Both the position numbers and the translations under genes were made by a program. The notes below the pieces were generated by a model that did not search any database, had not been told where the DNA came from, and was given only the letters and a program-made list of their open reading frames with translations. Positions 24,174 through 55,693 of a DNA stretch of 64,000 nt are shown here, piece by piece. The stretch's first letter is position 1. Each line of letters opens with the position of its first letter. Source of the DNA: an uncultured Pseudomonadales bacterium (GTDB lineage Bacteria > Patescibacteriota > Microgenomatia > UBA1400 > Chazhemtobacteraceae); contig CAYQZQ010000001.1 of assembly GCA_964422035.1 (NCBI GenBank), forward strand, positions 185,013 to 249,012, given 5' to 3'.

Positions 24174-24236
24174 TTTCTTTTCAGATTATCAGAGTTGGTG
24201 ATGAGTGTTTCGGGGATTTTATTTAATTGTATGGTG

Positions 24237-24307
24237 TTGCCGGGCTAGGATTCGAACCTAGATAACCGCCTTCAAAGGGCGATGTCCTACCGTTAGACGA
24301 CCCGGCA
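24237..24307 (-). tRNA. tRNA-Gln (anticodon UUG)
   Basis: Cloverleaf with U1-A72 pair, anticodon loop CUUUGAA, and T-loop TTCGAAT. CCA is not encoded. Confidence 0.75.
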
Positions 24308-24334
24308 AAGTAGTTTACATTTTACCAAATTATG

Positions 24335-24407
24335 AGCGGCGGACCGGGTTCGAACCGGCGACCTTCTCCTTGGGAAGGAGACGTTCTACCAACTGAACTA
24401 CCACCGC
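24335..24407 (-). tRNA. tRNA-Gly (anticodon CCC)
   Basis: Acceptor GCGGTGG/CCGCCGC and anticodon loop TTCCCAA. Confidence 0.8.
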
Positions 24408-24447
24408 AGTAACTCAATTTTATCAGACTAGAAATAAATCATTTGGT

Positions 24448-24523
24448 TGGAGCGGCGGACCGGACTCGAACCGGCGACCTTCTCGTTGGCAACGAGACGT
24501 TCTACCAACTGAACTACCACCGC
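24448..24523 (-). tRNA. tRNA-Gly (anticodon GCC)
   Basis: Near-duplicate of the previous tRNA with anticodon loop TTGCCAA. CCA is encoded. Confidence 0.8.
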
Positions 24524-24549
24524 ATGTTTGTATTTTATCAAATTACTTG

Positions 24550-24622
24550 TGCCGAGGCTCGGAATCGAACCGAGATCTGAGGTTTTTCAGACCACCGCCG
24601 TGACCAACTTGGCTACCTCGGC
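24550..24622 (-). tRNA. tRNA-Phe (anticodon GAA), non-canonical stems
   Basis: Acceptor GCCGAGG/CCTCGGC, T-arm CTCGG-TTCGATT-CCGAG, and anticodon loop CUGAAAA. The anticodon stem has a U-U mismatch and the D-stem is short. Confidence 0.55.
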
Positions 24623-24653
24623 AATTAAACAATTATATTTTACACGATTTAGT

Positions 24654-24727
24654 GTGGACTCGCCTGGGATCGAACCAGGGACCTTGCGGATGTAAACCGC
24701 ACGCTCTAACCAGCTGAGCTACGAGTC
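24654..24727 (-). tRNA. tRNA-Val (anticodon UAC)
   Basis: GGACTCGTAGCTCAGCTGGTTAGAGC... with anticodon loop TTTACAT. Confidence 0.8.
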
Positions 24728-24749
24728 CATTACTATAATTTTACCAAAT

Positions 24750-26510
24750 TTACTTGACTGTTACTGATTTGGCCAGATTACGGGGCATATCCGGATCAAG
24801 GTCTTTGAATAAGGCTAAGTAGTAGGCAAGGATTTGTCCAACAACAATGTTAGGAATTATTGAGGCAGTACCAGCATCATCTACGGGTACATAATCATCA
24901 AAGATTGATTCATTTTGGGGTGATAAACCAATAATTCTTCCTCCCCTGGCTTGCACTTCCATGGCGGCTGTTAATATGTCTGACTTTGTTTCATCATCGG
25001 GCGCCAAAACAATACAAGGTGTCCCCTTCTCTATTAAGGCAATTACGCCATGTTTTAGCTCTCCTGAGGGAAATCCTTCAGCGTGAATGTATGATATTTC
25101 TTTAATCTTTAAAGCTATCTCAAGGGCTGCAGGATATGATTGGCCTTTGCCCAACACAAATATTGAAGAGCTATCTTTTGTATCTTTAGCAATTTTTTTA
25201 AGCTTTTTAACCGAAGTCTCGTGAAGCACTTTTTTGCTTGATACTACTGCCTTTTTTAATTGTTCTTTGGCTTTTTTTGATTCACCTGTGTATTGGTAAG
25301 CAGCCATTAATAAAAGGCTTAATTTGGCCGTAAAAGCTTTGGTGCTGGCAACAGCTTTTTCAGGGCCTGCTTCTAGAAAAATACTTTCATCACTTATTCG
25401 ATCGAGAGTTGAGCCTTTGGTGTTTATCAAGGAAAAAGTTTTTGAGCCCTTTTTATTTGCATGCCTGATTGACTGGATAGTATCGATTGTTTCCCCACTT
25501 TGTGAAAGAGCAATGCACAAACTGTCTGGGTTTAAAAAATCAGAATGATAGTAAAATTCAGAACCTATGGCTGGATTAATTTGTTTTTTGGCGATGCGGG
25601 AAAAGAAATACTGGCCTGCCAGAGCAGCATAGGCAGCAGTACCACAAGCTACCGCAAAAACATTGTCTGCTTTTTTAATTTGATCAGCCAGCTTTTGTGT
25701 TGATGGAAGCTTGTCTTGGATAATTTTTTCGATTAATTGTGGTTGTTGATAAATTTCTTTTATCATGAAATGCTTGTGCTCACCTTTCTCTGCTTGTTGA
25801 GGCTTCCAGTCAATTGTTTCAACTTTATATTCAGTTTTTTTACCTGTATGAAGATCATAGATGCTTACATCATTTGGTGAAATTGTGGCAATCTGATCAT
25901 CTTTAAGGTGGATAATTTTATTAGTTTGAGGCAGCAAAGAAGCAATATCTGAAGCGACAAGATGGTTGCCTTTGTTGTAGCCGATGACTATTGGAGATCC
26001 TGTTTTGGCGGCTACTAAGTAGGGATAATCTTGGTGAAAAACCAAAAAGGCATTTATTCCCTTAGTTTGTCTAACGGTTTTTCTAACTGCTTTAAGCAGG
26101 TCTTTATCTTTCTTTAGGTTCTGCTCGATTAGGTGAACTACTATCTCGGAATCAGTCTGCGAATTAATTAGATGTTTGGCTTCAAGTTTATCTTTTAGCT
26201 GTTGCCAGTTGTCAACAATGCCGTTATGTACTAGCGTCAATTTACCAGAACAGTCAACGTGCGGGTGAGCGTTGGTTTTACTAACCTTGCCGTGGGTGGC
26301 CCAACGAGTATGACCGATACCTAACTTGCTTTTGGGAAGATCTGTTTTTGAATTTGAAATTTTACCGACTTTCTTTTGCGTGAGAACTTTCTGCTTGCCT
26401 TTAACTGCTATACCCCAGGAGTCATATCCACGATATTCCAGAAGCTTTAATCCCTCCAAGATTGTTTGGGCGCTGTCTTGATCGTTAGTCGTCGCAAATA
26501 TCCCACACAT
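24750..26510 (-). CDS. glmS: Glutamine--fructose-6-phosphate aminotransferase (isomerising)
   Basis: Starts MCGIFA (Ntn-hydrolase Cys2) and has two SIS domains. The track's N-terminal extension to 26579 overlaps a tRNA and is rejected. Confidence 0.9.
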   Translation of the reverse strand: MCGIFATTNDQDSAQTILEGLKLLEYRGYDSWGIAVKGKQKVLTQKKVGKISNSKTDLPKSKLGIGHTRWATHGKVSKTNAHPHVDCSGKLTLVHNGIVDNWQQLKDKLEAKHLINSQTDSEIVVHLIEQNLKKDKDLLKAVRKTVRQTKGINAFLVFHQDYPYLVAAKTGSPIVIGYNKGNHLVASDIASLLPQTNKIIHLKDDQIATISPNDVSIYDLHTGKKTEYKVETIDWKPQQAEKGEHKHFMIKEIYQQPQLIEKIIQDKLPSTQKLADQIKKADNVFAVACGTAAYAALAGQYFFSRIAKKQINPAIGSEFYYHSDFLNPDSLCIALSQSGETIDTIQSIRHANKKGSKTFSLINTKGSTLDRISDESIFLEAGPEKAVASTKAFTAKLSLLLMAAYQYTGESKKAKEQLKKAVVSSKKVLHETSVKKLKKIAKDTKDSSSIFVLGKGQSYPAALEIALKIKEISYIHAEGFPSGELKHGVIALIEKGTPCIVLAPDDETKSDILTAAMEVQARGGRIIGLSPQNESIFDDYVPVDDAGTASIIPNIVVGQILAYYLALFKDLDPDMPRNLAKSVTVK

Positions 26511-26538
26511 GGGTGTAAGTATAGCAAGGATAGTTTTG

Positions 26539-26622
26539 TGCCGAGGAGAGGACTTGAACCTCCACGGGGAAAACCCCACTACGTCCTCAACGTAGCCTGT
26601 CTACCAGTTCCAGCACCTCGGC
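26539..26622 (-). tRNA. tRNA-Leu (anticodon GAG)
   Basis: Class II tRNA with a long variable arm and anticodon loop TTGAGGA. Confidence 0.8.
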
Positions 26623-26626
26623 TTTG

Positions 26627-26710
26627 TGGGCAGGAGAGGACTCGAACCTCCACGAGCAAATGCCCATACGGATCTGAACCGTACGCGTCTACCAGTTCCG
26701 CCACCTGCCC
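26627..26710 (-). tRNA. tRNA-Leu (anticodon CAG)
   Basis: Class II tRNA with anticodon loop TTCAGAT. Confidence 0.8.
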
Positions 26711-26822
26711 GCGTATGGTTTTGACTGAATAAAATTATACCACCATAAGGCAATTTAGGTTTGACAAGAATGGCGGGATAGATAAAATGGAACTATAGAA
26801 GGTTATTAGTTATAGCAAAAAG

Positions 26823-27710
26823 ATGAGTAGAACAAAGAAAATGCCTAGTATCAAGAAATTAATTGCTCAATCCTGGGAGCGAGTAATTGAAAACTTTAGC
26901 GGATTAATTAAACTTTTGCTACTTGGGTGGCTTGGATATGCTTTAGTTGTACTAGTTAGTTCAGCGTGGCTTTTGGCCTTGGGAGTAACTAATAAAAATA
27001 TCATTTCAAAAGCAACTGCCAATCCTATGATTCTTTTGGAGTCTGGTCTGGTTTTGCAGTCTGCTGTTGTTTTGATTGTGTTAATGTTGCTTTTTGTAGT
27101 CCTTACGAATCTAATTACCATCGTCAAGATAAGAGTTTTAACAGGAAGCAGCAATATTATTGATACGGCTAAGAAAAACTTTAAGTTAGTTCTACCACTT
27201 ATTGGCCTTAATTTATTGATCTGGTTATTGATTTTTGGAGGAACCTGGCTTGTGTTGATTCCTGGCTTAGTTATTTACCTCTTTACAATTTTCGCTAGCT
27301 TGGAGCTTGTTCTTGCTGAGAAGGGAGTTATTTCATCTATCAAGAATAGTGTCCTCAAAGTTAAGGCTAACTTTGGCAAAGTATTGGTCCGTCTGTTGGC
27401 TTTGGCGGGCTTAATGGCTATAGTGTGGGGCCTGTCAGCCGCAATGTTTAAGTCAGAGTCATTGGGAGGCTTGCTCTTGTCATTCTTGAGAGTATTTGCA
27501 GGATGGTATGGTACTGCTTACATAATTGAGCTCTACAAGCATCTGGGCAGCCCAGAGGATAAAGAATGTGCTACCTGGTGGGTGTGGTTACTGGGACTAC
27601 TAGGCTGGATGGTCTTAATTGGGCTGGGTATCTTTGTTTTTAGAAACTTCTCCTCCTGGGGACAACCCTTGCTACAAGATCCCACCTTGCTCCCCACAGA
27701 GATGTCGTAA
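26823..27710 (+). CDS. Hypothetical polytopic membrane protein
   Basis: 295 aa with about 6 hydrophobic helices and no recognisable motif. Sits between two tRNA clusters. Confidence 0.5.
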   Translation: MSRTKKMPSIKKLIAQSWERVIENFSGLIKLLLLGWLGYALVVLVSSAWLLALGVTNKNIISKATANPMILLESGLVLQSAVVLIVLMLLFVVLTNLITIVKIRVLTGSSNIIDTAKKNFKLVLPLIGLNLLIWLLIFGGTWLVLIPGLVIYLFTIFASLELVLAEKGVISSIKNSVLKVKANFGKVLVRLLALAGLMAIVWGLSAAMFKSESLGGLLLSFLRVFAGWYGTAYIIELYKHLGSPEDKECATWWVWLLGLLGWMVLIGLGIFVFRNFSSWGQPLLQDPTLLPTEMS

Positions 27711-27759
27711 GTGGTCAAATAGGTACTAGAGGATTTTAAGTGGTAAAATATTAGGTGTC

Positions 27760-27844
27760 GCCGAGGTGGCGGAATAGGCAGACGCGCGGGACTTAAAATC
27801 CCGTGAGGAGATCCCTCGTGCGGGTTCGATTCCCGCCCTCGGCA
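27760..27844 (+). tRNA. tRNA-Leu (anticodon UAA)
   Basis: Class II tRNA with anticodon loop CTTAAAA. A TGGTAAAAT element lies 11 nt upstream. Confidence 0.8.
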
Positions 27845-27861
27845 CAGACGCACATTTTATA

Positions 27862-27937
27862 CGGGGCGTAGCTCAGATGGCAGAGTGCTGCGTTTGGGAC
27901 GCAGAGGTCCTCGGTTCGAGCCCGAGCGCCCCGACCA
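27862..27937 (+). tRNA. tRNA-Pro (anticodon UGG)
   Basis: CGGGGCG acceptor and anticodon loop TTTGGGA. CCA is encoded. Confidence 0.8.
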
Positions 27938-27947
27938 AATATGTAGT

Positions 27948-28022
27948 GCGGGAGTAGCTCAATGGTTAGAGCATCTGCCTTCCAAGCAGAAGATGGGGGT
28001 TCGATTCCCCTCTCCCGCTCCA
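27948..28022 (+). tRNA. tRNA-Trp (anticodon CCA)
   Basis: GCGGGAG acceptor and anticodon loop TTCCAAG. CCA is encoded. Confidence 0.8.
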
Positions 28023-28023
28023 G

Positions 28024-28100
28024 GCGCCCATAGCTCAGTTGGATAGAGCGACTGCCTTCTAAGCAGTAGGTCGCAGGTTCGAATCCTGCTGGGCGCACCA
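28024..28100 (+). tRNA. tRNA-Arg (anticodon UCU)
   Basis: GCGCCCA acceptor and anticodon loop CTTCTAA. CCA is encoded. 1-nt spacer after tRNA-Trp. Confidence 0.8.
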
Positions 28101-28112
28101 AGCATATGACAT

Positions 28113-28188
28113 GGTGGCTGTAGCTCAGGGGTTAGAGCGCCGCTCTGTGGAAGCGGAGGTCGCGGGTTCGATTCTCGTCAGCCACCCA
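28113..28188 (+). tRNA. tRNA-His (anticodon GUG)
   Basis: Extra G-1 opposite C73 and anticodon loop CTGTGGA. Confidence 0.8.
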
Positions 28189-28209
28189 AACTTAAAATAA
28201 ATCTTTAAT

Positions 28210-29160
28210 ATGAATAGAAAGATATACATTCTTTTTGGCGGACCAAGTTCAGAACATGAAGTATCATTTGGTACTAGAGACTATTTCCTTAAGTTGTATA
28301 GGGATAAGCAACCTACAACAATTTACTGGAGACGTGACGGGAAATTTGAGATTATGGGTGAAGAGTATTCAGAAGATAAAGTTATTTCTTTTTTATCAGA
28401 AAAAAAGGCCGTAGTACTTATTGCTGCCCACGGTGAAAAAGTTGAAGATGGTTATATTCAACAAAAATTTGAGAAGGAAAGAATACCTTTTACAGGCTCG
28501 GATTCTGATTCATGTGAGTTATCGATGGACAAGTACCGATCTATGGAACATGTAAAGAGTATTGTAAATGTGCCTAAAACATATAAGACTGCCCCAGCAG
28601 ATTTTAATTTCCAAAAGATGGTTAAAATTATTGGAAAAGATTATCCTTTATTTGTAAAGCCGGTTGATTTGGGTTCTTCGGTGGATATCCATAAAGTAGA
28701 AAGTGAGACTAAGTTAAAAAAGTTAATAAAAAGGTTGAGTAGAGATGAATATTTATTTCAGTCCGAGATCAAAGGTACTGAGGTTTCACTGGCTAGTGTA
28801 CGCGAAGACAACTCCTTTATGAACCTCTACCCTACCGAGATTATTCCCAGTTCAGACTTTTTTGATTATAAGGCCAAGTACATTCCAGGACAGTCAGAAG
28901 AGATTACACCGGCAAGGATATCTGAAAAGTTAACCAAAAAGCTACAAGAAAAGACCAACAAGATACATCAAGCTCTGGGATTGGGATATTATTCACGGTC
29001 TGATTTCATAATCGATGAAAATGAAGAAATTTTTTATTTAGAGACTAATTCACTGCCTGGAATGACTCAGACATCTTTAGTTCCTCAACAGCTTAAGTAT
29101 TCAGAAAAGGTAAAAGATTTTATAGAAGGATTAATAAACAGGAAGAACTTGATAGGTTGA
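28210..29160 (+). CDS. ddl: D-alanine--D-alanine ligase (ATP-grasp)
   Basis: KIYILFGGPSSEHEVS N-terminus and C-terminal ATP-grasp motifs (SRSDFIIDENEEIFYLETNSLPGMT). Confidence 0.8.
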   Translation: MNRKIYILFGGPSSEHEVSFGTRDYFLKLYRDKQPTTIYWRRDGKFEIMGEEYSEDKVISFLSEKKAVVLIAAHGEKVEDGYIQQKFEKERIPFTGSDSDSCELSMDKYRSMEHVKSIVNVPKTYKTAPADFNFQKMVKIIGKDYPLFVKPVDLGSSVDIHKVESETKLKKLIKRLSRDEYLFQSEIKGTEVSLASVREDNSFMNLYPTEIIPSSDFFDYKAKYIPGQSEEITPARISEKLTKKLQEKTNKIHQALGLGYYSRSDFIIDENEEIFYLETNSLPGMTQTSLVPQQLKYSEKVKDFIEGLINRKNLIG

Positions 29161-29204
29161 GAATAATTTAAAAAGAACACCTTGAGAGGTATAATAAGGT
29201 CATT

Positions 29205-29281
29205 GCGTCGTTAGCTCAGTTGGTCAGAGCACCTGCCTCTTAAGCAGGGTGTCCTGGGTTCGAATCCCAGACGACGCACCA
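29205..29281 (+). tRNA. tRNA-Lys (anticodon CUU)
   Basis: Anticodon loop CTCTTAA. CCA is encoded. TATAAT lies 8 nt upstream. Confidence 0.8.
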
Positions 29282-29355
29282 GCGCCAGTAGCTCAGTGGA
29301 TTAGAGCACCGGTCTTCGGAACCGGGTGTCGGGGGTTCGAATCCCTCCTGGCGCA
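29282..29355 (+). tRNA. tRNA-Arg (anticodon UCG)
   Basis: Begins the nucleotide after the CCA of tRNA-Lys. Anticodon loop CTTCGGA. Confidence 0.75.
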
Positions 29356-29419
29356 CACTTGACATAAAGATAATAGATTGCCAGTATATAGTCAGTTAAG
29401 ATAAATTGATGCCTGCCAG

Positions 29420-30046
29420 ATGAATAAAAAGATATGGTTGTTTCCAGTTTGGTTAATCGGATCTAGTTTGTTGCTAGTTTGGACATTGGCTATGTATAAG
29501 GCTGGTGATGCTTCTGCTAAACCTGAGGTTAAGTCTATGAGTGTAACCAAAACTGGTAGTTCTCCGCAACTTCTGTACTCGGCCGTACCTAACAGACAAA
29601 TTAATATTAGGACAGCGATTAAATCAGCTGACGGAAGAGAAGAAATGTTAAGACAATATCTAAGCAGATATGACTCCCCTCTTGTAGAGCACGCTGGCTT
29701 ACTTGTTGAAATGGCTGATAAATATGACTTTGATTTCCGTTGGATGGTGGCTATCGCTCAACAAGAAAGTAATTTGTGTAAGAAGATTCCACATAATTCA
29801 TATAATTGTTGGGGTTGGGGAATATATTGCTTGGACTACGACCAAGAAGCTCAGAAATGCAACAAGATGCAGGTAATAAGATTTGATAGTTATGAAGATG
29901 CAATTATAAAAATTGCACCCCAATTTAAGGAAAAGTTTTTAGCTGATGAGGATGCCAGTCCCGAGGAGGTAATGCAAACATACACTCCTCCATCTGATGG
30001 ATCTTGGGCTTTTGGGATTAGTCAGTTTATGAGCGATATGGAGTAG
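29420..30046 (+). CDS. Secreted/membrane-anchored protein with possible lysozyme-like (glycoside-hydrolase) motif
   Basis: N-terminal TM. AIAQQESNLCKK...NCWGWGIY weakly resembles the catalytic-Glu region of SLT/glucosaminidase domains. Confidence 0.4.
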   Translation: MNKKIWLFPVWLIGSSLLLVWTLAMYKAGDASAKPEVKSMSVTKTGSSPQLLYSAVPNRQINIRTAIKSADGREEMLRQYLSRYDSPLVEHAGLLVEMADKYDFDFRWMVAIAQQESNLCKKIPHNSYNCWGWGIYCLDYDQEAQKCNKMQVIRFDSYEDAIIKIAPQFKEKFLADEDASPEEVMQTYTPPSDGSWAFGISQFMSDME

Positions 30047-30087
30047 GCTGGTATTTTTGTGGGTAAATAAGGTAAAATATTGCACAT

Positions 30088-30174
30088 GCCGAGGTGGCGG
30101 AATTGGCAGACGCGCTAGATTTAGGATCTAGTGGGATTTATCCCGTGGAGGTTCAAGTCCTCTCCTCGGCACCA
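30088..30174 (+). tRNA. tRNA-Leu (anticodon UAG)
   Basis: Class II tRNA with anticodon loop TTTAGGA. CCA is encoded. Confidence 0.8.
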
Positions 30175-45530: not shown

Positions 45531-45606
45531 TGGTGGACGGTGAAGGACTTGAACCTTCGACCTCTGCAATGTGAATGCAGCGCTCTGCCAACTGAGCTAA
45601 CCGTCC
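45531..45606 (-). tRNA. tRNA-Val (anticodon CAC)
   Basis: GGACGGTTAGCTCAGTTGG... with anticodon loop TTCACAT. CCA is encoded. GGTATAAT lies 12 nt upstream. Confidence 0.8.
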
Positions 45607-48860: not shown

Positions 48861-49910
48861 TCAGGTGTTCACCGGACCTCTATAGGCCGAATATACCAAT
48901 CCCAATGAAGCAAATGAGGTAACTAGAGAGCTGCCTCCGTATGATACAAAAGGCAAAGTAATTCCAGTGACCGGCATCAAACCTAAGTTCATACTGATAT
49001 TAATTGCAAACTGAACAAAAATCAACCAGAAAACCCCAAGGACAATCAGTTTTTCAAATTTCTTCAGACGCTCAGCTGCATTCAATAACCAGAATAAAAT
49101 GGCTACAAAAGCTGAAAGCAGCAAAGTAATGCCTACAAAGCCAAATTCTTCTCCAAAAGCTGCGAAGGCAAAGTCTGTGTGTCTTTCAGGTAGAAATTTT
49201 AGTTGTGATTGCGTTCCCTGTCGCACTCCTTTGCCTAAAAACTGGCCCGCACCGATTGCAATGATCGATTGAATAACATTGTAACCACTACCAGAAGGAT
49301 CTGTGTAGGGATTAATAAAACTAAATATACGTAGCTTTTGATAGTCTTGCAGAAACAACCAACCGCTGGGAATTGAAACTAAAATTAATCCTACTAAGGC
49401 CAAAAGTTGTTTTTTACTAGGACCACTGATTAAAAACATACCAAGCCATATCGCAGAAATAATCATAGCAGAGCCCAAGTCAGGTTGAATAAAGACCAAG
49501 AAGACAACGACTGCTAGAATGCCCAGCTGCTTTGCAAGCCACTGAAGGCTTTCTTTTTTGTTAGAGAAAAAGTGAGCAAAGCTAATGATCAACATGGGTT
49601 TGATTATCTCTGAAGTTTGGAGCCGAAATGTGCCTATCTCGATCCAGCGCACTGACCCTCTGGTTATATTGCCTAAAAGTAAAGTGACAAGAAGAAGTAA
49701 AATTGCTCCGACTAAACTGGGGATAGCTAGAATGGGCAGAAATTGAGCAGGAATGCGGGAGATGATTATCATGACAGTTATGCCAATGAAAACAAAAAGT
49801 AGTTGACTTAAAAACAAACTGGGAGTAGTACTCCAAATAGTAGAGAGACCAAAAATCAGAATTAAAATTAGAGGAACAGCCAGTTTTAAGACAAATTCCT
49901 TGTTATTCAT
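48861..49910 (-). CDS. SEDS-family peptidoglycan glycosyltransferase (RodA-like). A second copy is distinct from the FtsW in the dcw cluster.
   Basis: 349 aa with 10 TM helices and SEDS motifs (DLGSAMII, PFVSYGGSSL). Confidence 0.75.
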   Translation of the reverse strand: MNNKEFVLKLAVPLILILIFGLSTIWSTTPSLFLSQLLFVFIGITVMIIISRIPAQFLPILAIPSLVGAILLLLVTLLLGNITRGSVRWIEIGTFRLQTSEIIKPMLIISFAHFFSNKKESLQWLAKQLGILAVVVFLVFIQPDLGSAMIISAIWLGMFLISGPSKKQLLALVGLILVSIPSGWLFLQDYQKLRIFSFINPYTDPSGSGYNVIQSIIAIGAGQFLGKGVRQGTQSQLKFLPERHTDFAFAAFGEEFGFVGITLLLSAFVAILFWLLNAAERLKKFEKLIVLGVFWLIFVQFAINISMNLGLMPVTGITLPFVSYGGSSLVTSFASLGLVYSAYRGPVNT

Positions 49911-49914
49911 TAGT

Positions 49915-52863
49915 TTAGGATTTAATGATCTTTAGCTCATCCCCTTGCTTTATCTCTTTTACTTGAGCTTGTGATTTAATTTCATCTTCAAATTCTTTAG
50001 GCCAATCAGGAAGCTCTATTACGATTTGGGCGTCAAAGTCTGTTTGCGCTTTTTTACGAGCTTTTTGTATTTCACGAATGATTTTTCTTGTTTCACCTTT
50101 TTGTTTTAGTCTTTCTGTGAGTTTGGTATCGAGCTTGACTTTTATTTCACCTGCTTTGCTTATGTTTACTTTTTCGATATTTAGCTCTTCTTTAATTAAT
50201 TGAAGTAGACCATTTTGGTCTTTAAAATGCTCGACAGGACCAAAAACAGATATCTTCGACAGAGGTTGCCTTAAAGGTATGTCTTCTTTTTTTCTGTGGG
50301 CTCTACCCAGCTCAACTATTTCTCTCACAAGTTTCATATCCTCAATTAGTTGCAGCTGCTCTTGATTAAGAGGTTCTGTTTTTGGCCAGTCAGATAGATT
50401 AACGGATTCATAACCTGTCAGGTTTGTGTAGATTTGCTCTGAAACAAATGGCATAAATGGCATAAGTATGCGTGACAGATCGACAAGGACTGAATGCAGG
50501 GTATGATTTGCAGCTTGTTTTTCGGGTGAGTCTTTTACATTGGGTCCAATTTTGCTACGAGAGCGGCGGATGTACCATGTTGAAAGATCTGAAACAAAAG
50601 CTTCGATCGCTTGGCTTGCAGTGAATGCATCAAAGTCATTTAAGCTTTTTTCAGCAATAATTATAGTCTGATCAAGTCTGGTCCTAATCCAATCATCTAA
50701 GGTCGAAGGCTGAATATCGTCTTGAGGTTCCCAGTCTTCAAGAGCGGCATAGTTGGCAAAAAAGCGATATGAGTGCCATAGAATCATTAAAAACTGACGA
50801 CGAATCTCATCAGCTTTCTTGTAACCAAATAGAAGGTTTCTCTGAGGGTTTTGCCTGGCGTATAACCAACGCATAACGTCTACTCCCATTTTGTTTGCCG
50901 CCTCATCAAAGGCTATGGCGTTACCAGCTGACTTGTGCATCTCTTCTCCTTTTTCATCTAAAACTGTTGCGAAGCCTAATACATTCTTAAAAGGATTGGT
51001 GTTTTCAAGAGCGGTGCTCATGGCAATAAGTGAGTAAAACCAGTTTTTAAACTGGCCGGGGAAGGACTCGGTTATATAATCTGCAGGAAACCATTTTTGC
51101 CAGTATTTTTTGTCATCTGTATAACTTAACTGATCTTTGTCTGGATCGGTTAGAGTTGAGAAGGGAACGATACCGGCATCTAGCCAGGGATTGCCCACGT
51201 CTTCGATTCTGGTCATTTGACCACCACAAGAACAAGCGATTTTTACCTGATCTACGTAAGGTTTATGGGGTGTTTTTTCTTCAAATTTTTCCCAACCTTG
51301 CGTGGCTTTTCTTTTTAATTCTTGCTTGCTGCCGATTACCTCAATCTGATCACAGTCATTACATTTCCATATTGGTAAAGAAAGGCCCCAGTAACGATTC
51401 TTTTTTGAGATTAACCAATCACTCATGTTATTTAACCAGTCTAGTTCTCTATCCAGTCCAAACTCCGGTCTCCAGTCAATTTTTTTAGCTACATTGATCA
51501 TCTTTTCTCTCAGGGTGTTAGCGTCGGGATCATTTGGATCTTCTTTGTCCATGGCAATATACCACTCATCAGCTAATTTCCAGATTAATTCTGTCTTACA
51601 GCGCCAACAAGTAGGATAGCGGTGTTTGTATTGGTGAATATTAAATACCCAGTTACTGCCTTTTTGGTCTTCTTCAATCAAATGATCAAGAACAACTTCA
51701 GGATTTTTCTTAGCATTTTTACCAGTTAAGAAACCCAAGCCCTCTTTATAGGTGGCGTCATCGTTGATAACAGGAATTAAGGGGAGGTCTAATTTTTGGC
51801 CTAACTTGTAGTCTTGAGTACCGGCACTCACAGCCGTATGAACCAGACCAGTCCCTTCCTCTGTTGAGATAGGCAATATGCGGGGATCGGTGGCTATGAC
51901 GGTGTGAAACTTGTCTGAACTCTCTTGAACTTTTTTAACAGCTGCCAGATTATCAAAGGGAGCCCGGTACTTTAATCCCACCAATTTTTTACCTTTTTGA
52001 GTCTTGATGATTTTGACATCCTGGTCAAAGATTTCAGCTACCAATTGAGCAGCCAGCCATAGTTGTTTATCTGAATCCGGCTCCTGGACAAGTGTGTATT
52101 CAAGGTTTGGATCAACGGCAACTGAGATATTGGCGGGAATTGTCCAGGGTGTGGTGGTCCAGACTAGTAAGAATTGATTATCTTTGCCTTCTATGGGGAG
52201 GCGAAAGAAGATTGATTTGTGGGTTATATCTTTATAGTTTTCGGTTAAGATTTCGTGTTGAGAGAGAGCTGTCTGGCATCTTGGACACCAAGGGACAGAG
52301 TCTTTACCTTGATATAACCAGCCTTTTTGATGACATGTTTTGAGAAAGTGCCAAATCATGTAGTTGTTTTTTTCTGACATGGTGAAGTAGGAGTTTTCCC
52401 AATCCATTAGGTATCCCAGACGCTTGCTTTGATCGGTCTGGATGTCTGAGTATTTTTTGACTCTGTCTTTACATTTTTGGACAAAGTCAGCTACACCGTA
52501 TTGCTCAATATCTTTTTTGTTTTTAAAGTTTAGCTGCTTTTCTACTTCAACCTCGACCCACAAGCCCTGGCAGTCAAAACCATTTTGAAAACGCTGTTTG
52601 TAGCCTTTCATGTTTTTATAACGCTGCCATAAGTCTTTGTAAGTTCTACCCCAACCGTGGTGAACACCCATAGGGTTATTGGCAGTGATTGGTCCATCCA
52701 AAAAAGAAAATCTTTTTTCAGATTGGTCATTTTTATGCAGATATTTATCGACAACTCCCTCTTGGTACCACTTTTTTAGTATTTTTTTCTCTCGCTTTAC
52801 AAAATCAGGACGGCTGTCAACCGACTGGATTTTATGACCTGACTTAAATTTTGTGTCTGACAT
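49915..52863 (-). CDS. ileS: Isoleucyl-tRNA synthetase
   Basis: Class Ia: GFDCQGLWVE, zinc knuckle VPWCPRCQTAL, editing-domain TTTPWTIPANISVAVDP, and a KMSKS-like MHKSAGNAI. 982 aa. Confidence 0.9.
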   Translation of the reverse strand: MSDTKFKSGHKIQSVDSRPDFVKREKKILKKWYQEGVVDKYLHKNDQSEKRFSFLDGPITANNPMGVHHGWGRTYKDLWQRYKNMKGYKQRFQNGFDCQGLWVEVEVEKQLNFKNKKDIEQYGVADFVQKCKDRVKKYSDIQTDQSKRLGYLMDWENSYFTMSEKNNYMIWHFLKTCHQKGWLYQGKDSVPWCPRCQTALSQHEILTENYKDITHKSIFFRLPIEGKDNQFLLVWTTTPWTIPANISVAVDPNLEYTLVQEPDSDKQLWLAAQLVAEIFDQDVKIIKTQKGKKLVGLKYRAPFDNLAAVKKVQESSDKFHTVIATDPRILPISTEEGTGLVHTAVSAGTQDYKLGQKLDLPLIPVINDDATYKEGLGFLTGKNAKKNPEVVLDHLIEEDQKGSNWVFNIHQYKHRYPTCWRCKTELIWKLADEWYIAMDKEDPNDPDANTLREKMINVAKKIDWRPEFGLDRELDWLNNMSDWLISKKNRYWGLSLPIWKCNDCDQIEVIGSKQELKRKATQGWEKFEEKTPHKPYVDQVKIACSCGGQMTRIEDVGNPWLDAGIVPFSTLTDPDKDQLSYTDDKKYWQKWFPADYITESFPGQFKNWFYSLIAMSTALENTNPFKNVLGFATVLDEKGEEMHKSAGNAIAFDEAANKMGVDVMRWLYARQNPQRNLLFGYKKADEIRRQFLMILWHSYRFFANYAALEDWEPQDDIQPSTLDDWIRTRLDQTIIIAEKSLNDFDAFTASQAIEAFVSDLSTWYIRRSRSKIGPNVKDSPEKQAANHTLHSVLVDLSRILMPFMPFVSEQIYTNLTGYESVNLSDWPKTEPLNQEQLQLIEDMKLVREIVELGRAHRKKEDIPLRQPLSKISVFGPVEHFKDQNGLLQLIKEELNIEKVNISKAGEIKVKLDTKLTERLKQKGETRKIIREIQKARKKAQTDFDAQIVIELPDWPKEFEDEIKSQAQVKEIKQGDELKIIKS

Positions 52864-53055
52864 AGTTTAAGGATAACAAATTAAAAAAAGCACACCACTC
52901 TGGTGTGCTAGATCCCGTTGGAGGGAGGTACCATCTAACTATTTACTTATTTTACCGCTATGACGGGCTTACCCGGAGAGGTCTACTAGTTATTAAAACT
53001 TTCTTCTCTCAACTTCGCTTAGTGATAGCCAAGCTCAGATGTTTTTTAAGCTAGT
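52864..53055 (-). ncRNA. Candidate T-box leader (Ile specifier) / transcription attenuator for ileS
   Basis: Minus-strand transcript contains AGUUAGA-UGGUACC-UCCC...GGGA-UCUAG (T-box-like 7-nt bulge UGGNACC with N=U), an upstream loop GGCUAUCACU carrying AUC-A, and terminator AGCACACCA-GAG-UGGUGUGCU plus U7 ending 19 nt before the AUG. Confidence 0.4.
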
Positions 53056-53058
53056 TTG

Positions 53059-53087
53059 ATTATACAAAAAGAACTGTAAGAGAGCAA
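53059..53087 (-). promoter_or_regulatory. Putative promoter for the ileS leader (TTGCTC-N17-TGTATAAT, extended -10)
   Basis: Read on the minus strand. -10 TATAAT at 53059-53064 with an upstream TG; -35-like TTGCTC at 53082-53087. Confidence 0.4.
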
Positions 53088-53101
53088 AAACTAACTTGTG
53101 T

Positions 53102-54331
53102 TTATTTTTTTCTCAAAAACGCGGGAATGTCAAGCTCTGACTCTACCTGAACTTCTGAGTGCTTGTATTTATCGTCTAGGTCCTGAGGTGACTTGTCTTT
53201 GCTTTCTTGCTGTTTATCTTTTGGCTTAGACTTTTTATCTTCTTCAGTGGGCTTTTGCTTATCTTGAGGAGGAGAGGTTTTAGTATCTTGATCTTTTTTA
53301 TCAGGTACATTAAGTTTTTGAGTGGAGAAGGAGGACTGGGAGCGATTAACAAAACCTTGGAGACGTCGACGGGATTCATCAAAGCCGGTAGCGATTACAG
53401 AAATCTTCATATCTCCTTTTTTAAGACTTTCATCGATGTTGGCCCCAAAGATTATATTAGCATCGGCATCGGCGGCTTCAGCAATTATCTGAGCTGCGTT
53501 ATTTACCTCAGTCATAGTAAGATCTGGTCCACCAGTAATATTGAAAAGTATGCCTCTGGCTCCCTCGATTGAAGTTTCTAAAAGTGGAGAGCTGGTGGCA
53601 TCTCTGGCCGCTTCTTGAGCCCTGTTTTCGCCAGATCCGGTACCAGTACCCATCAAGGCTGAACCAGCGTTGTACATAATAGTTCTTACATCTGCAAAGT
53701 CAACGTTAATTAGTCCTGGAACGGTAATTAGATCTGATATGGCTTGGACGCCTTTGGATAGAACTGAGTCGACAATTGAAAAAGCTTCCAGCATGGAAAC
53801 ATCCTTATCAATGATCTCCATAACCTTTTGGTTGGGAATAACAATTAAAGTATCAACCTTATCTTTTAATTGTTCTATCCCCTCTTCTGCTTGTACCATG
53901 CGGCGGGTGCCTTCAAAGACGAATGGTTTGGTTACAACAGCGACGGTTAGAGCTCCTACTTCTCTGGATATTTCAGCAATGATGGGGGCGGCTCCGGTTC
54001 CAGTGCCTCCACCCATACCAGCGGTAATAAAAGTCATGTCTGTATCCACCAAAAGATCTCTTATCTTGTCTCGTGATTCTTCAGCAGCAGAATTGCCAAT
54101 TTCGGGGTCACCACCAGAGCCTAGACCCTGGGTAAGCTCTTCACCAATTTGAAGCTTGGTTTCAGCGTTGTTGCTGAGCATGGCCTGGAGGTCGGTATTT
54201 ACAGCGATAAACTCAACTCCCTTGATATTTCCTTCTCTAATCATGGTATTGACGGCATTACCACCACCACCACCAATACCAAGAACTTTGATCTTGGCGA
54301 ATGAGTTAATGTCTGGTTTAACTAAACCCAT
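53102..54331 (-). CDS. ftsZ: Cell division GTPase FtsZ
   Basis: GIGGGGGNAVNTM and the tubulin signature; disordered C-terminal tail. Confidence 0.95.
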   Translation of the reverse strand: MGLVKPDINSFAKIKVLGIGGGGGNAVNTMIREGNIKGVEFIAVNTDLQAMLSNNAETKLQIGEELTQGLGSGGDPEIGNSAAEESRDKIRDLLVDTDMTFITAGMGGGTGTGAAPIIAEISREVGALTVAVVTKPFVFEGTRRMVQAEEGIEQLKDKVDTLIVIPNQKVMEIIDKDVSMLEAFSIVDSVLSKGVQAISDLITVPGLINVDFADVRTIMYNAGSALMGTGTGSGENRAQEAARDATSSPLLETSIEGARGILFNITGGPDLTMTEVNNAAQIIAEAADADANIIFGANIDESLKKGDMKISVIATGFDESRRRLQGFVNRSQSSFSTQKLNVPDKKDQDTKTSPPQDKQKPTEEDKKSKPKDKQQESKDKSPQDLDDKYKHSEVQVESELDIPAFLRKK

Positions 54332-54397: not shown

Positions 54398-55693
54398 CTA
54401 TGGCAGCAGTGATTTTAACCAAGCAAACACTTTATTAAAAGATCCCTTTCCGGGCAGTTTTTTGAAAAATTGACCAAAGTCAGGTGAGATACCACCACCG
54501 GCTGAAGTTTCTTGGGTGGCGCCATAGAGAATCAAGCCTGAAACTGAGGAGTAGGCTGGAGTTTTTATTTCATCGACGAGACCAGACAGACCACTGGGCT
54601 CTCCAATGCGGGCAGGCAACCGGAGAGTGTTTTTGCAACTTTTAAGAACACCTGTTGTTTGAGCACCTCCTCCGGTAATGACAACTCCAGCCGGAGTAGA
54701 ACCAGCAAAACCTGATTTTTCAAGCTCTTGGCCTACAAAATCAAATATTTCGTTTAGACGAGGTCTGATTATCCCCTCTTCGAGAGTTTTCCTTGAGGCG
54801 GTTTTAATGTCTTCGGCAATACCTAGTCTAGATAGATTGATTTCATCTTGAGATCTGGGGGGGGTGTCTTCATGTGGAGTAGCTGTGCGAGGACGAGTTT
54901 TAAGTTCAGTTAAGTGTTTTTTTATCTTTTCTGCTGATTCTAAACTGACCCTTAAGCCAATGGCTAAGTCATTGGTGATGTTTTTGGCTCCAATGGGCAA
55001 AACAGATGAATATGATAAAGCACTGTCGGCGAAAACAGTGATTGAGGTTGTTCCCCCGCCAAGATCTACCAAAACTACACCTAATTCTTTTTCGGTTTCT
55101 GACAGAACTGCCTGAGAAGAAGCCAGGCCTGAGAAAACTAGATCTTCTATATCAATACCCAGGTCTTCTACACATTTAACAAGATTGCGTATCACGGCGG
55201 TGGAACCGGTAATCAAATGAGCTTCTGTCTCCAAACGGACGCCTGTCATCCCCAACGGATCGCGGATATCACCTTGAGAGTCAACTATAAATTCCCTGGG
55301 GATAACGTGAAGAATTTCTCTTGATGAAGGCAAGGATACGGCGCGGGCAGCTTCGATAACTCTGAAGATATCATCTTGAATGATTTCACCTTCCGGATTA
55401 CCAACAGCGACAACTCCTTTTGAGTTTTGTGATTGAACATGTTCACCGCCTACAGCAATAAAAGCAGAGCTGATGGGATAACCAGCCATTCTTTCTGCAG
55501 CTTCGACTGATTCTGTTATAGAAGCTATGGCTGCTTCAATATCAACTACTTGGCTTTTTTTGATTCCCCTACTGGAAACAGAGGAGACTCCGACAACATT
55601 TAAACGGTCACTTTCTTGGGAAGTTGCTGCAATGACTGTGGCTATTTTACTGGAGCCTATATCGACGGCAGCGGTTAATTTTGGGCGAGGCAT
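54398..55693 (-). CDS. ftsA: Cell division protein FtsA
   Basis: Actin-fold with AAVDIGSSKIATVIA, GGGTTSITVF and VITGGGAQTTG. Confidence 0.9.
   Translation of the reverse strand: MPRPKLTAAVDIGSSKIATVIAATSQESDRLNVVGVSSVSSRGIKKSQVVDIEAAIASITESVEAAERMAGYPISSAFIAVGGEHVQSQNSKGVVAVGNPEGEIIQDDIFRVIEAARAVSLPSSREILHVIPREFIVDSQGDIRDPLGMTGVRLETEAHLITGSTAVIRNLVKCVEDLGIDIEDLVFSGLASSQAVLSETEKELGVVLVDLGGGTTSITVFADSALSYSSVLPIGAKNITNDLAIGLRVSLESAEKIKKHLTELKTRPRTATPHEDTPPRSQDEINLSRLGIAEDIKTASRKTLEEGIIRPRLNEIFDFVGQELEKSGFAGSTPAGVVITGGGAQTTGVLKSCKNTLRLPARIGEPSGLSGLVDEIKTPAYSSVSGLILYGATQETSAGGGISPDFGQFFKKLPGKGSFNKVFAWLKSLLP

Follow-up and report, generated by a model that had tools for sequence, protein, structure and literature searches.

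The locus raises the question of what is encoded in the long spacer between ftsZ and ileS, and whether it controls the synthetase gene that follows. The window, i.e. the whole analyzed stretch of 64,000 nucleotides, carries on its minus strand the gene order ftsA, ftsZ, a 238-nt spacer, ileS and rodA.

54398-55693, minus strand: ftsA
53102-54331, minus strand: ftsZ, the upstream neighbour, outside the switch (NCBIfam TIGR00065, 421.5 bits)
49915-52863, minus strand: ileS, the gene predicted to be under control, 982 aa, a single ORF (NCBIfam TIGR00392, 655.9 bits, over the cut-off)
48861-49910, minus strand: rodA

The spacer extends from the ftsZ stop codon (53104-53102) to the ileS ATG (52863-52861), which is in agreement with the length given in the first-pass annotation, and the identities of both flanking genes were taken from NCBIfam. 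The closest IleS proteins are of the Patescibacteria/Microgenomates type with an identity of at most 70%. In the relatives L087, L089, L090, L092, L093, L094, L095 and L096, ileS was called as two consecutive ORFs (three in L094), with splits after ~370-690 codons, and the ileS of the window is unsplit. Such split calls in CPR relatives could be due to frameshifts in the assembly, to recoding or to genuinely split genes. The window also contains 16 tRNA genes in tight clusters on both strands (24236-30174 and 45531-45606), namely Gln, Gly (three), Phe, Val (two), Leu (four), Pro, Arg (two), His and Lys. No tRNA-Ile gene was found in the window or in any of the fetched loci.

For the identification of the putative regulatory element, the 5′ half of the spacer was analyzed first by comparison with RNA families. 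The Rfam covariance-model check that had been proposed for the spacer was negative. At gathering thresholds the scan of the whole window returned tRNAs only, and an E-value scan of the spacer (351-nt region, E ≤ 10) did not find the T-box family RF00230; the five Rfam matches listed there (patAB, U54 and others, E 0.6-6) are noise. RF00230 also missed the family members L090 and L088. In the first-pass annotation the absence of a significant T-box hit had been regarded as a refutation. This is too narrow, since RF00230 scores clear CPR T-boxes at just 40-70 bits, compared to a gathering score of 93. The scores were 56.8 bits (E 5e-12) for L004, 57.3 bits for L048 and 40.5 bits for L005, all below the gathering score. 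In the Rfam alignments of L004 and L005 the distal part of Stem I is deleted, with 74 model positions reduced to 4, and the remaining short hairpin has the apical loop UAAUCA or AUAUCA.

For an independent test, a covariance model (R1) was trained on three decoding domains only, those of L004, L005 and L048, with the window left out. It covers the base and hairpin of Stem I, the lower helix and apical hairpin of Stem II, and Stem IIA. Searching both strands of the 64-kb window, R1 gave one match at 52956-53045 on the minus strand with 47.8 bits and an E-value of 1.6e-8, over the full length of the model and with 19 of 19 pairs canonical. This is the top score outside the three seeds; further matches were found in L074, L078, L054, L059, L088, L090 and L092. 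Five unrelated contigs with the exact IIA/F-box motif served as negative controls and scored just 13-23 bits. They came from pattern scans of viral contigs, which yielded no compact T-box; their five motif matches lie inside coding sequence and were rejected as chance matches. The matched region comprises the following elements:

52956-53045, minus strand: T-box decoding domain with Stem I, Stem II, Stem IIA and F-box tail (R1 match and covariation in 11 leaders)
53017-53034, minus strand: ultrashort Stem I hairpin GCUUGG-CUAUCA-CUAAGC, 18 nt (covariance-model alignment)
52976-53010, minus strand: Stem II with the lower helix GAGAG/CUCUC, the S-turn strands AAGAAA and UAGUAGAC and the apical hairpin GUU-UUAAU-AAC (covariance-model alignment and covariation)
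52956-52975, minus strand: Stem IIA hairpin CGGG-UAAG-CCCG with the F-box-like tail UCAUAGCG (covariance-model alignment)

In the alignment of 11 leaders, 95.1% of the cells in paired columns are paired, compared to 68.7% after shuffling (reached in 0 of 500 shuffles) and 32-50% when the partners were slid. Changes on both sides were found for 13 of the 19 modelled pairs. The unpaired motifs were invariant or nearly so, i.e. the AUCA loop, the S-turn strands GAAGAAA and AGUAGAC, and CGGGUAAGCCCGU-A-AGC. The ileS leaders of the relatives keep the specifier loop and the bulge of the T-box as well as S-turn and F-box while the helices covary, which is what the first-pass annotation had asked of Stem I and the specifier. 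Its proposal that ileS is preceded by an Ile-specific T-box leader in this CPR-type genome is supported by the match to a model made from relatives only and by this covariation.

The specifier AUC is located at 53026-53024 in the apical loop CUAUCA (53028-53023), upstream of ileS, and is followed by the purine A at 53023. The loop sequence GGCUAUCACU with an Ile codon and a subsequent purine was therefore correctly noted at first reading. The 10-nt loop drawn there did not stand: the better-supported register is a 6-bp stem GCUUGG/CUAAGC with the 6-nt loop CUAUCA, which is favoured because the loops of the relatives read NNAUCA. This was the case in all 10 relatives aligned at that position, with AUCA invariant; the loop CCAUCAA of L088 was left as an insert. 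Stem I is flanked by tandem GA on both strands (53036-53035 and 53016-53015), and a check for a K-turn/GA motif showed a bulge of 4 nt and an extra A on the opposite strand. A long Stem I with the distal platform for the tRNA elbow (interdigitated T-loops) is absent, Stem I of the window being the 18-nt hairpin.

The lower helix of Stem II shows double changes across the family in 5 of 5 pairs, and its S-turn strands are conserved. It is followed on the 3′ side by the Stem IIA/F-box hairpin CGGGUAAGCCCGUCAUAGC, which is nearly identical in L005, L048, L088, L090 and L092; a IIB pseudoknot is putative. Stem II with its S-turn strands and Stem IIA/F-box, which had not been used in the first-pass annotation, are the strongest evidence for a T-box.

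The T-box sequence itself is less discriminating. The window contains 44 copies of the pattern UGGNA[AC]C, and the arrangement helix-UGGNACC-helix alone is not rare, with 2 observed cases compared to 3.05±1.6 per shuffled window. A helix-bulge-helix with an adjoining terminator was obtained in 4 of 100 shuffled windows. A second TGGTACC with complementary arms lies at ~52770 on the minus strand inside ileS, in the codons for KKWYQEG and with no terminator after it; sites of this kind are as frequent as expected by chance. The fold of the whole spacer is modestly better than that of shuffled sequences (z = -1.85). Taken with the negative Rfam result, the modest z-score and the frequency of the helix-UGGNACC-helix shape in shuffles would suit a structured RNA of another kind, such as an ftsZ 3′ UTR or a small RNA, or a resemblance by chance. 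This explanation is hardly credible here, as the independent covariance model (E~2e-8) and the covariation already effectively refute it. Moreover, the correct Ile codon lies in the correct loop before ileS, and the same element is found in relatives. The antiterminator bulge is located 22 nt downstream of the sole decoding-domain match in the window.

In the 3′ half of the leader, the following elements were identified:

52940-52955, minus strand: linker GUAAAAUAAGUAAAUA, single-stranded and rich in purines, Stem III hairpin absent (spacing, alignment gap and comparison with L090)
52907-52939, minus strand: antiterminator with helix A1 GUUAGA/UCUAGC, the 7-nt bulge UGGUACC (52933-52927) and helix A2 UCCC-UCCAAC-GGGA (sequence, fold and RNAalifold with L090)
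52883-52909, minus strand: intrinsic terminator AGCACACCA-GAG-UGGUGUGCU followed by a U-run (U7) (terminator prediction and fold)

The T-box sequence AGUUAGAUGGUACCUCCC is present as originally described, with the arms UUAGA/UCUAG and UCCC/GGGA flanking the 7-nt bulge UGGUACC. The core in the window is AGAUGGUACCUCC, compared to the canonical GGGUGGNACCGCG, and both helices are still kept. The variable position N of UGGN was U in each of the 22 T-box motifs detected upstream of ileS. The discriminator base of bacterial tRNA-Ile is A73, to which a U at this position fits; the pairing of the two, as proposed in the first-pass annotation, is a prediction. The first pair of A2 is U-A in the window and in L088, G-C in L090 and A-U in L092 and L048; a G-U wobble was found only in L004 and L074.

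The perfect 9-bp terminator with its U-run (52909-52883) lies exactly 19 nt before the ileS AUG, as had been reported. Its first three nucleotides, AGC (52909-52907), are also the last three of the 3′ strand of A1. The mutual exclusivity of antiterminator and terminator, which the first-pass annotation had left to folding, thus holds for the AGC common to both, with an overlap of just 3 nt. Given this overlap, the inner half of A1 together with A2 can form even when the terminator is complete. The computed energies of the terminator and the antiterminator state were -18.9 and -16.1 kcal/mol for the window and -17.9 and -16.5 kcal/mol for L090. According to these computed values, the small gap would be the arrangement expected of an off-by-default switch that is tipped by four ACCA pairs.

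Two other pairings were considered and rejected. In the MFE structure the F-box tail CCGUCAUAGC (52956-52966) pairs with GUUAGAUGG (52931-52939) and masks the T-box. L090 does not conserve this pairing, which is therefore probably fortuitous. A mimicry in cis, in which the ACCA of the terminator 5′ arm pairs with the bulge in the manner of a tRNA end, comprises just 4 bp and is unsupported by conservation.

An ultrashort Stem I is a typical trait of translational T-boxes, and the related leaders of L054, L059 and L078 carry Shine-Dalgarno sequestrators. A T-box acting at translation or by another non-attenuation mechanism, like the actinobacterial ileS T-boxes with an ultrashort Stem I, was therefore considered for the window. 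In the 19 nt between U-run and AUG, however, no Shine-Dalgarno-like sequence was found and the start region has no pairing partner. The 3′ structure is instead a textbook hairpin with U7, as in L090, L092, L048 and L004, so that a translational mechanism appears very improbable.

The region upstream of the leader was analyzed for a promoter, with the following result:

53082-53087, minus strand: possible -35-like hexamer TTGCTC, 3 of 6 positions identical to TTGACA, 17 nt upstream of the -10 hexamer (read from the sequence)
53059-53064, minus strand: -10 hexamer TATAAT, located 13 nt before the start of the modelled RNA (sequence)

An extended -10 promoter had been described for this region. 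The hexamer TATAAT at 53064-53059 could be confirmed. The canonical TGnTATAAT could not, as the TG directly abuts the hexamer (TGTATAAT). The promoter was not called by a consensus scan because the -35 region matches at only 3 of 6 positions. In 6 of 7 family members a TATAAT or TACAAT hexamer was found 6-18 nt upstream of the T-box.

With a probability of roughly 80%, the spacer is an isoleucine-specific T-box riboswitch which controls ileS by transcription attenuation. Transcription would start a few nucleotides past the TATAAT at 53064-53059. The nascent leader would then fold the decoding domain, with the short Stem I presenting AUC and the subsequent purine in its apical loop. The S-turn of Stem II and Stem IIA/B would dock beside Stem I, as in the solved actinobacterial ileS T-boxes, and tRNA-Ile (anticodon GAU) would bind to this domain. 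In the case of an uncharged tRNA, the 3′ ACCA is predicted to pair with UGGU of the bulge and thereby to stabilize helix A1 (GUUAGA/UCUAGC). A1 would take AGC, the bottom three nucleotides of the terminator 5′ arm, which would reduce the terminator stem from 9 to 6 bp and place it 3 nt off the U-run. Termination generally requires a stem whose base directly adjoins the U-run, and on this ground the loss of the bottom three pairs should suffice for read-through. With the terminator shortened and displaced, RNA polymerase would read through into ileS. In the case of a charged tRNA, the full terminator would form and transcription would stop 19 nt before the AUG.

The window element is a compact variant without elbow platform, Stem III and A2 G-U wobble. 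The distance from the IIA tail to the bulge is 22 nt, compared to 36-110 nt in L092, L088, L048, L004, L074 and L005, where it accommodates a hairpin. In the alignment, a gap of 17 columns in the window lies opposite Stem III of L092 and L088. The purines flanking Stem III (5′-RRRxG-Stem III-AA-3′) remain in the window as AAGU-AAA. A covariance model of the discriminator domain from Stem III-bearing relatives was abandoned, as MAFFT scattered the variable Stem III hairpins. In the glyQS system, Stem III has been reported to be indispensable for the binding of the tRNA 3′ end, together with the purines RRRxG...AA, and the A2 G-U wobble is stated to sense the aminoacyl group sterically (PMC7583486).

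The missing Stem III and G-U wobble could thus indicate a decaying relic, i.e. an element of T-box descent whose discriminator half is dead after their loss. The terminator would then be constitutive or leaky, or would mainly end read-through from ftsA-ftsZ. The lack of an Rfam match is consistent with this explanation, and so is the patchy distribution of the element among close relatives, being present in the window, L088, L090 and L092 and missing from about a dozen. No T-box was found before ileS in L001, L002, L003, L006, L007, L086, L087, L089, L091 and L093-L097, so that most of these relatives offer no leader for a comparison. As most close relatives are without a T-box altogether, loss would be ongoing in the clade, and the T-box is dispensable there. 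The synteny of ftsZ and ileS is retained in the T-box-less relatives L001, L002, L006, L089, L093, L094 and L097, and in many T-box-less relatives the ftsZ-ileS spacer is just 15-57 nt. The spacer of L002 measures ~200 nt (2800-2990) and contains two copies of the short direct repeat ATTTGGGATTTGT and the GC-rich palindrome CCTGCCGGCCGGCAGG, with no T-box.

The main evidence against a relic, which is the main rival of the attenuation model, comes from L090. Its IleS is 64% identical to that of the window and its upstream gene is VanW, not ftsZ. Among all leaders found, only L090 shares the design without Stem III and with a 3-nt overlap, resulting in a total of two examples. It has the identical loop CUAUCA, the identical core UUAGAUGGUACC and the sequence AAGUAAAAA, which runs straight into A1 without a Stem III. 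The L090 terminator AAUCUCC...GGGGAUU with U-run has exactly 3 nt (AAU) in common with A1. Between window and L090, identity was 6/6 in the specifier loop, 6/6 in AAGAAA, 7/7 in the bulge and 13/16 in the purine linker, and drift would not preserve these elements in a dead discriminator half. Compensatory pairs were found in Stem I (two stem changes), Stem II and A1 (GC>AU, UG>UA). A2 and the terminator are unrelated in sequence and alike in shape, i.e. re-invented in L090. RNAalifold, applied to both leaders without guidance, recovered Stem I, A1, the unpaired bulge and A2. In addition, a constitutive 9-bp/U7 terminator between an essential gene and its own promoter, 19 nt before the gene, would be deleterious unless overridden. 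The comparison with L090 thus disfavours the relic, which is considered unlikely.

If the attenuation model is followed further, the leaders of the window and L090 could be natural minimal T-boxes (~160 nt) without elbow platform or Stem III, in which the upper terminator hairpin serves as a surrogate of Stem III. This extension is tentative and rather doubtful at present. The residual upper 6-bp hairpin of the terminator starts on the nucleotide right after A1 and therefore could stack coaxially on A1, at the place where Stem III normally stacks, and the purines AAGU-AAA would lie along the minor groove. In this arrangement a single hairpin would be both terminator and stand-in for Stem III, and charging would be sensed without a G-U wobble. 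The replacement of Stem III by the residual terminator hairpin would also account for the joint occurrence of Stem III loss and 3-nt overlap.

Beyond the close relatives, ileS T-boxes with an ultrashort Stem I were also found in L048 (Parcubacteria-type), L004 (a Dojkabacteria MAG) and L005 (a 'Saccharibacteria' MAG). The gene upstream of the T-box and ileS varies and was found to be ftsZ (window, L088), VanW (L090) or a pilin-like gene (L092); the T-box travels with ileS whatever gene lies upstream. A clear hairpin with U7 ends the leaders of L048, L004, L092, L090 and the window, and the 3′ fold of L088 is atypical. In the fold predicted for L088 (~2410-2480), the 5′ half of the T-box including UGG of the bulge (AGAGGUGG) pairs with CCACCUUU, followed by a U-run, with A2 and a second hairpin enclosed between the two strands. 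The predicted terminator-like structure would thus sequester the tRNA-binding bulge, compared to the usual competition for the 3′ strand. In L005 a terminator-like hairpin with a U-run (CCCGUAAUGGGAUUUUUU) was found at ~2380-2420 in the long T-box linker, upstream of the bulge. An ORF for a DUF1232 membrane protein (Pfam PF06803, E 6e-11 and 4e-15) lies between T-box and ileS in L004 (2755-2979) and L005 (2666-2851). The T-box would therefore control a two-gene unit.

In the searchable literature, no paper was found that pairs a T-box riboswitch with Patescibacteria or the Candidate Phyla Radiation, which is an absence of evidence only. As judged from the sequences, the leaders described here would extend T-box regulation to Microgenomates-, Parcubacteria-, Dojkabacteria- and Saccharibacteria-type CPR genomes. 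Standard Rfam annotation misses or under-scores these CPR ileS T-boxes. T-boxes are a model system for RNA-RNA recognition, and the elbow-binding platform of Stem I has been described as needed by transcriptional T-boxes for a sufficiently fast capture of the tRNA (PMC7583486). A transcriptional T-box without elbow platform and Stem III would be surprising to T-box specialists; two such leaders were found here. They keep all single-stranded motifs that contact the tRNA as well as the terminator. If the model is true, the two missing modules are dispensable or replaceable, or the sensor is built in a new way, and a leader of ~160 nt would be a handy minimal scaffold for structural and synthetic work.

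The actinobacterial ileS T-boxes with an ultrashort Stem I (Sherwood et al., 2015, as cited in the review PMC7583486) are among the closest known systems. In Mycobacterium and Nocardia they precede the same gene and use the same AUC specifier as the window. In both, a short Stem I carries the specifier in its apical loop, the position that TBDB also gives for this class (Stem I hairpin loop), and an elbow platform is absent. The S-turn of Stem II, Stem IIA/B (F-box) and the 7-nt UGGNACC bulge between two helices are also common to both. The ultrashort Stem I has been described as a feature of translational T-boxes, and transcriptional ones 'generally require' the elbow platform (PMC7583486). 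The actinobacterial class is translational with a Shine-Dalgarno sequestrator, whereas the window has an intrinsic terminator. Furthermore, the actinobacterial class has a Stem III and a conserved GAG linker, whereas the window leader lacks Stem III and belongs to a CPR genome.

With the transcriptional leaders of the Firmicutes (RF00230; Bacillus tyrS, glyQS), the window shares the choice between terminator and antiterminator, an aminoacyl-tRNA synthetase gene downstream and a specifier followed by a purine. The pairing of the bulge with the tRNA NCCA end is predicted for the window as well. In contrast to these leaders, the window has no long Stem I, distal platform, specifier side-bulge or Stem III. 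It carries AGAUGGUACCUCC instead of GGGUGGNACCGCG, and its A2 opens with U-A instead of G-U. The overlap between antiterminator and terminator is 3 nt in the window, whereas it covers most of the 3′ strand in the Firmicutes leaders.

The CPR ileS T-boxes of L004, L005, L048, L088 and L092 (the latter two Microgenomates-type) have the same decoding domain with an NNAUCA apical loop. They keep Stem III, which the window does not have. In L048, L004 and L092 a large part of A2/A1 is shared with the terminator, compared to the 3 nt found in the window.
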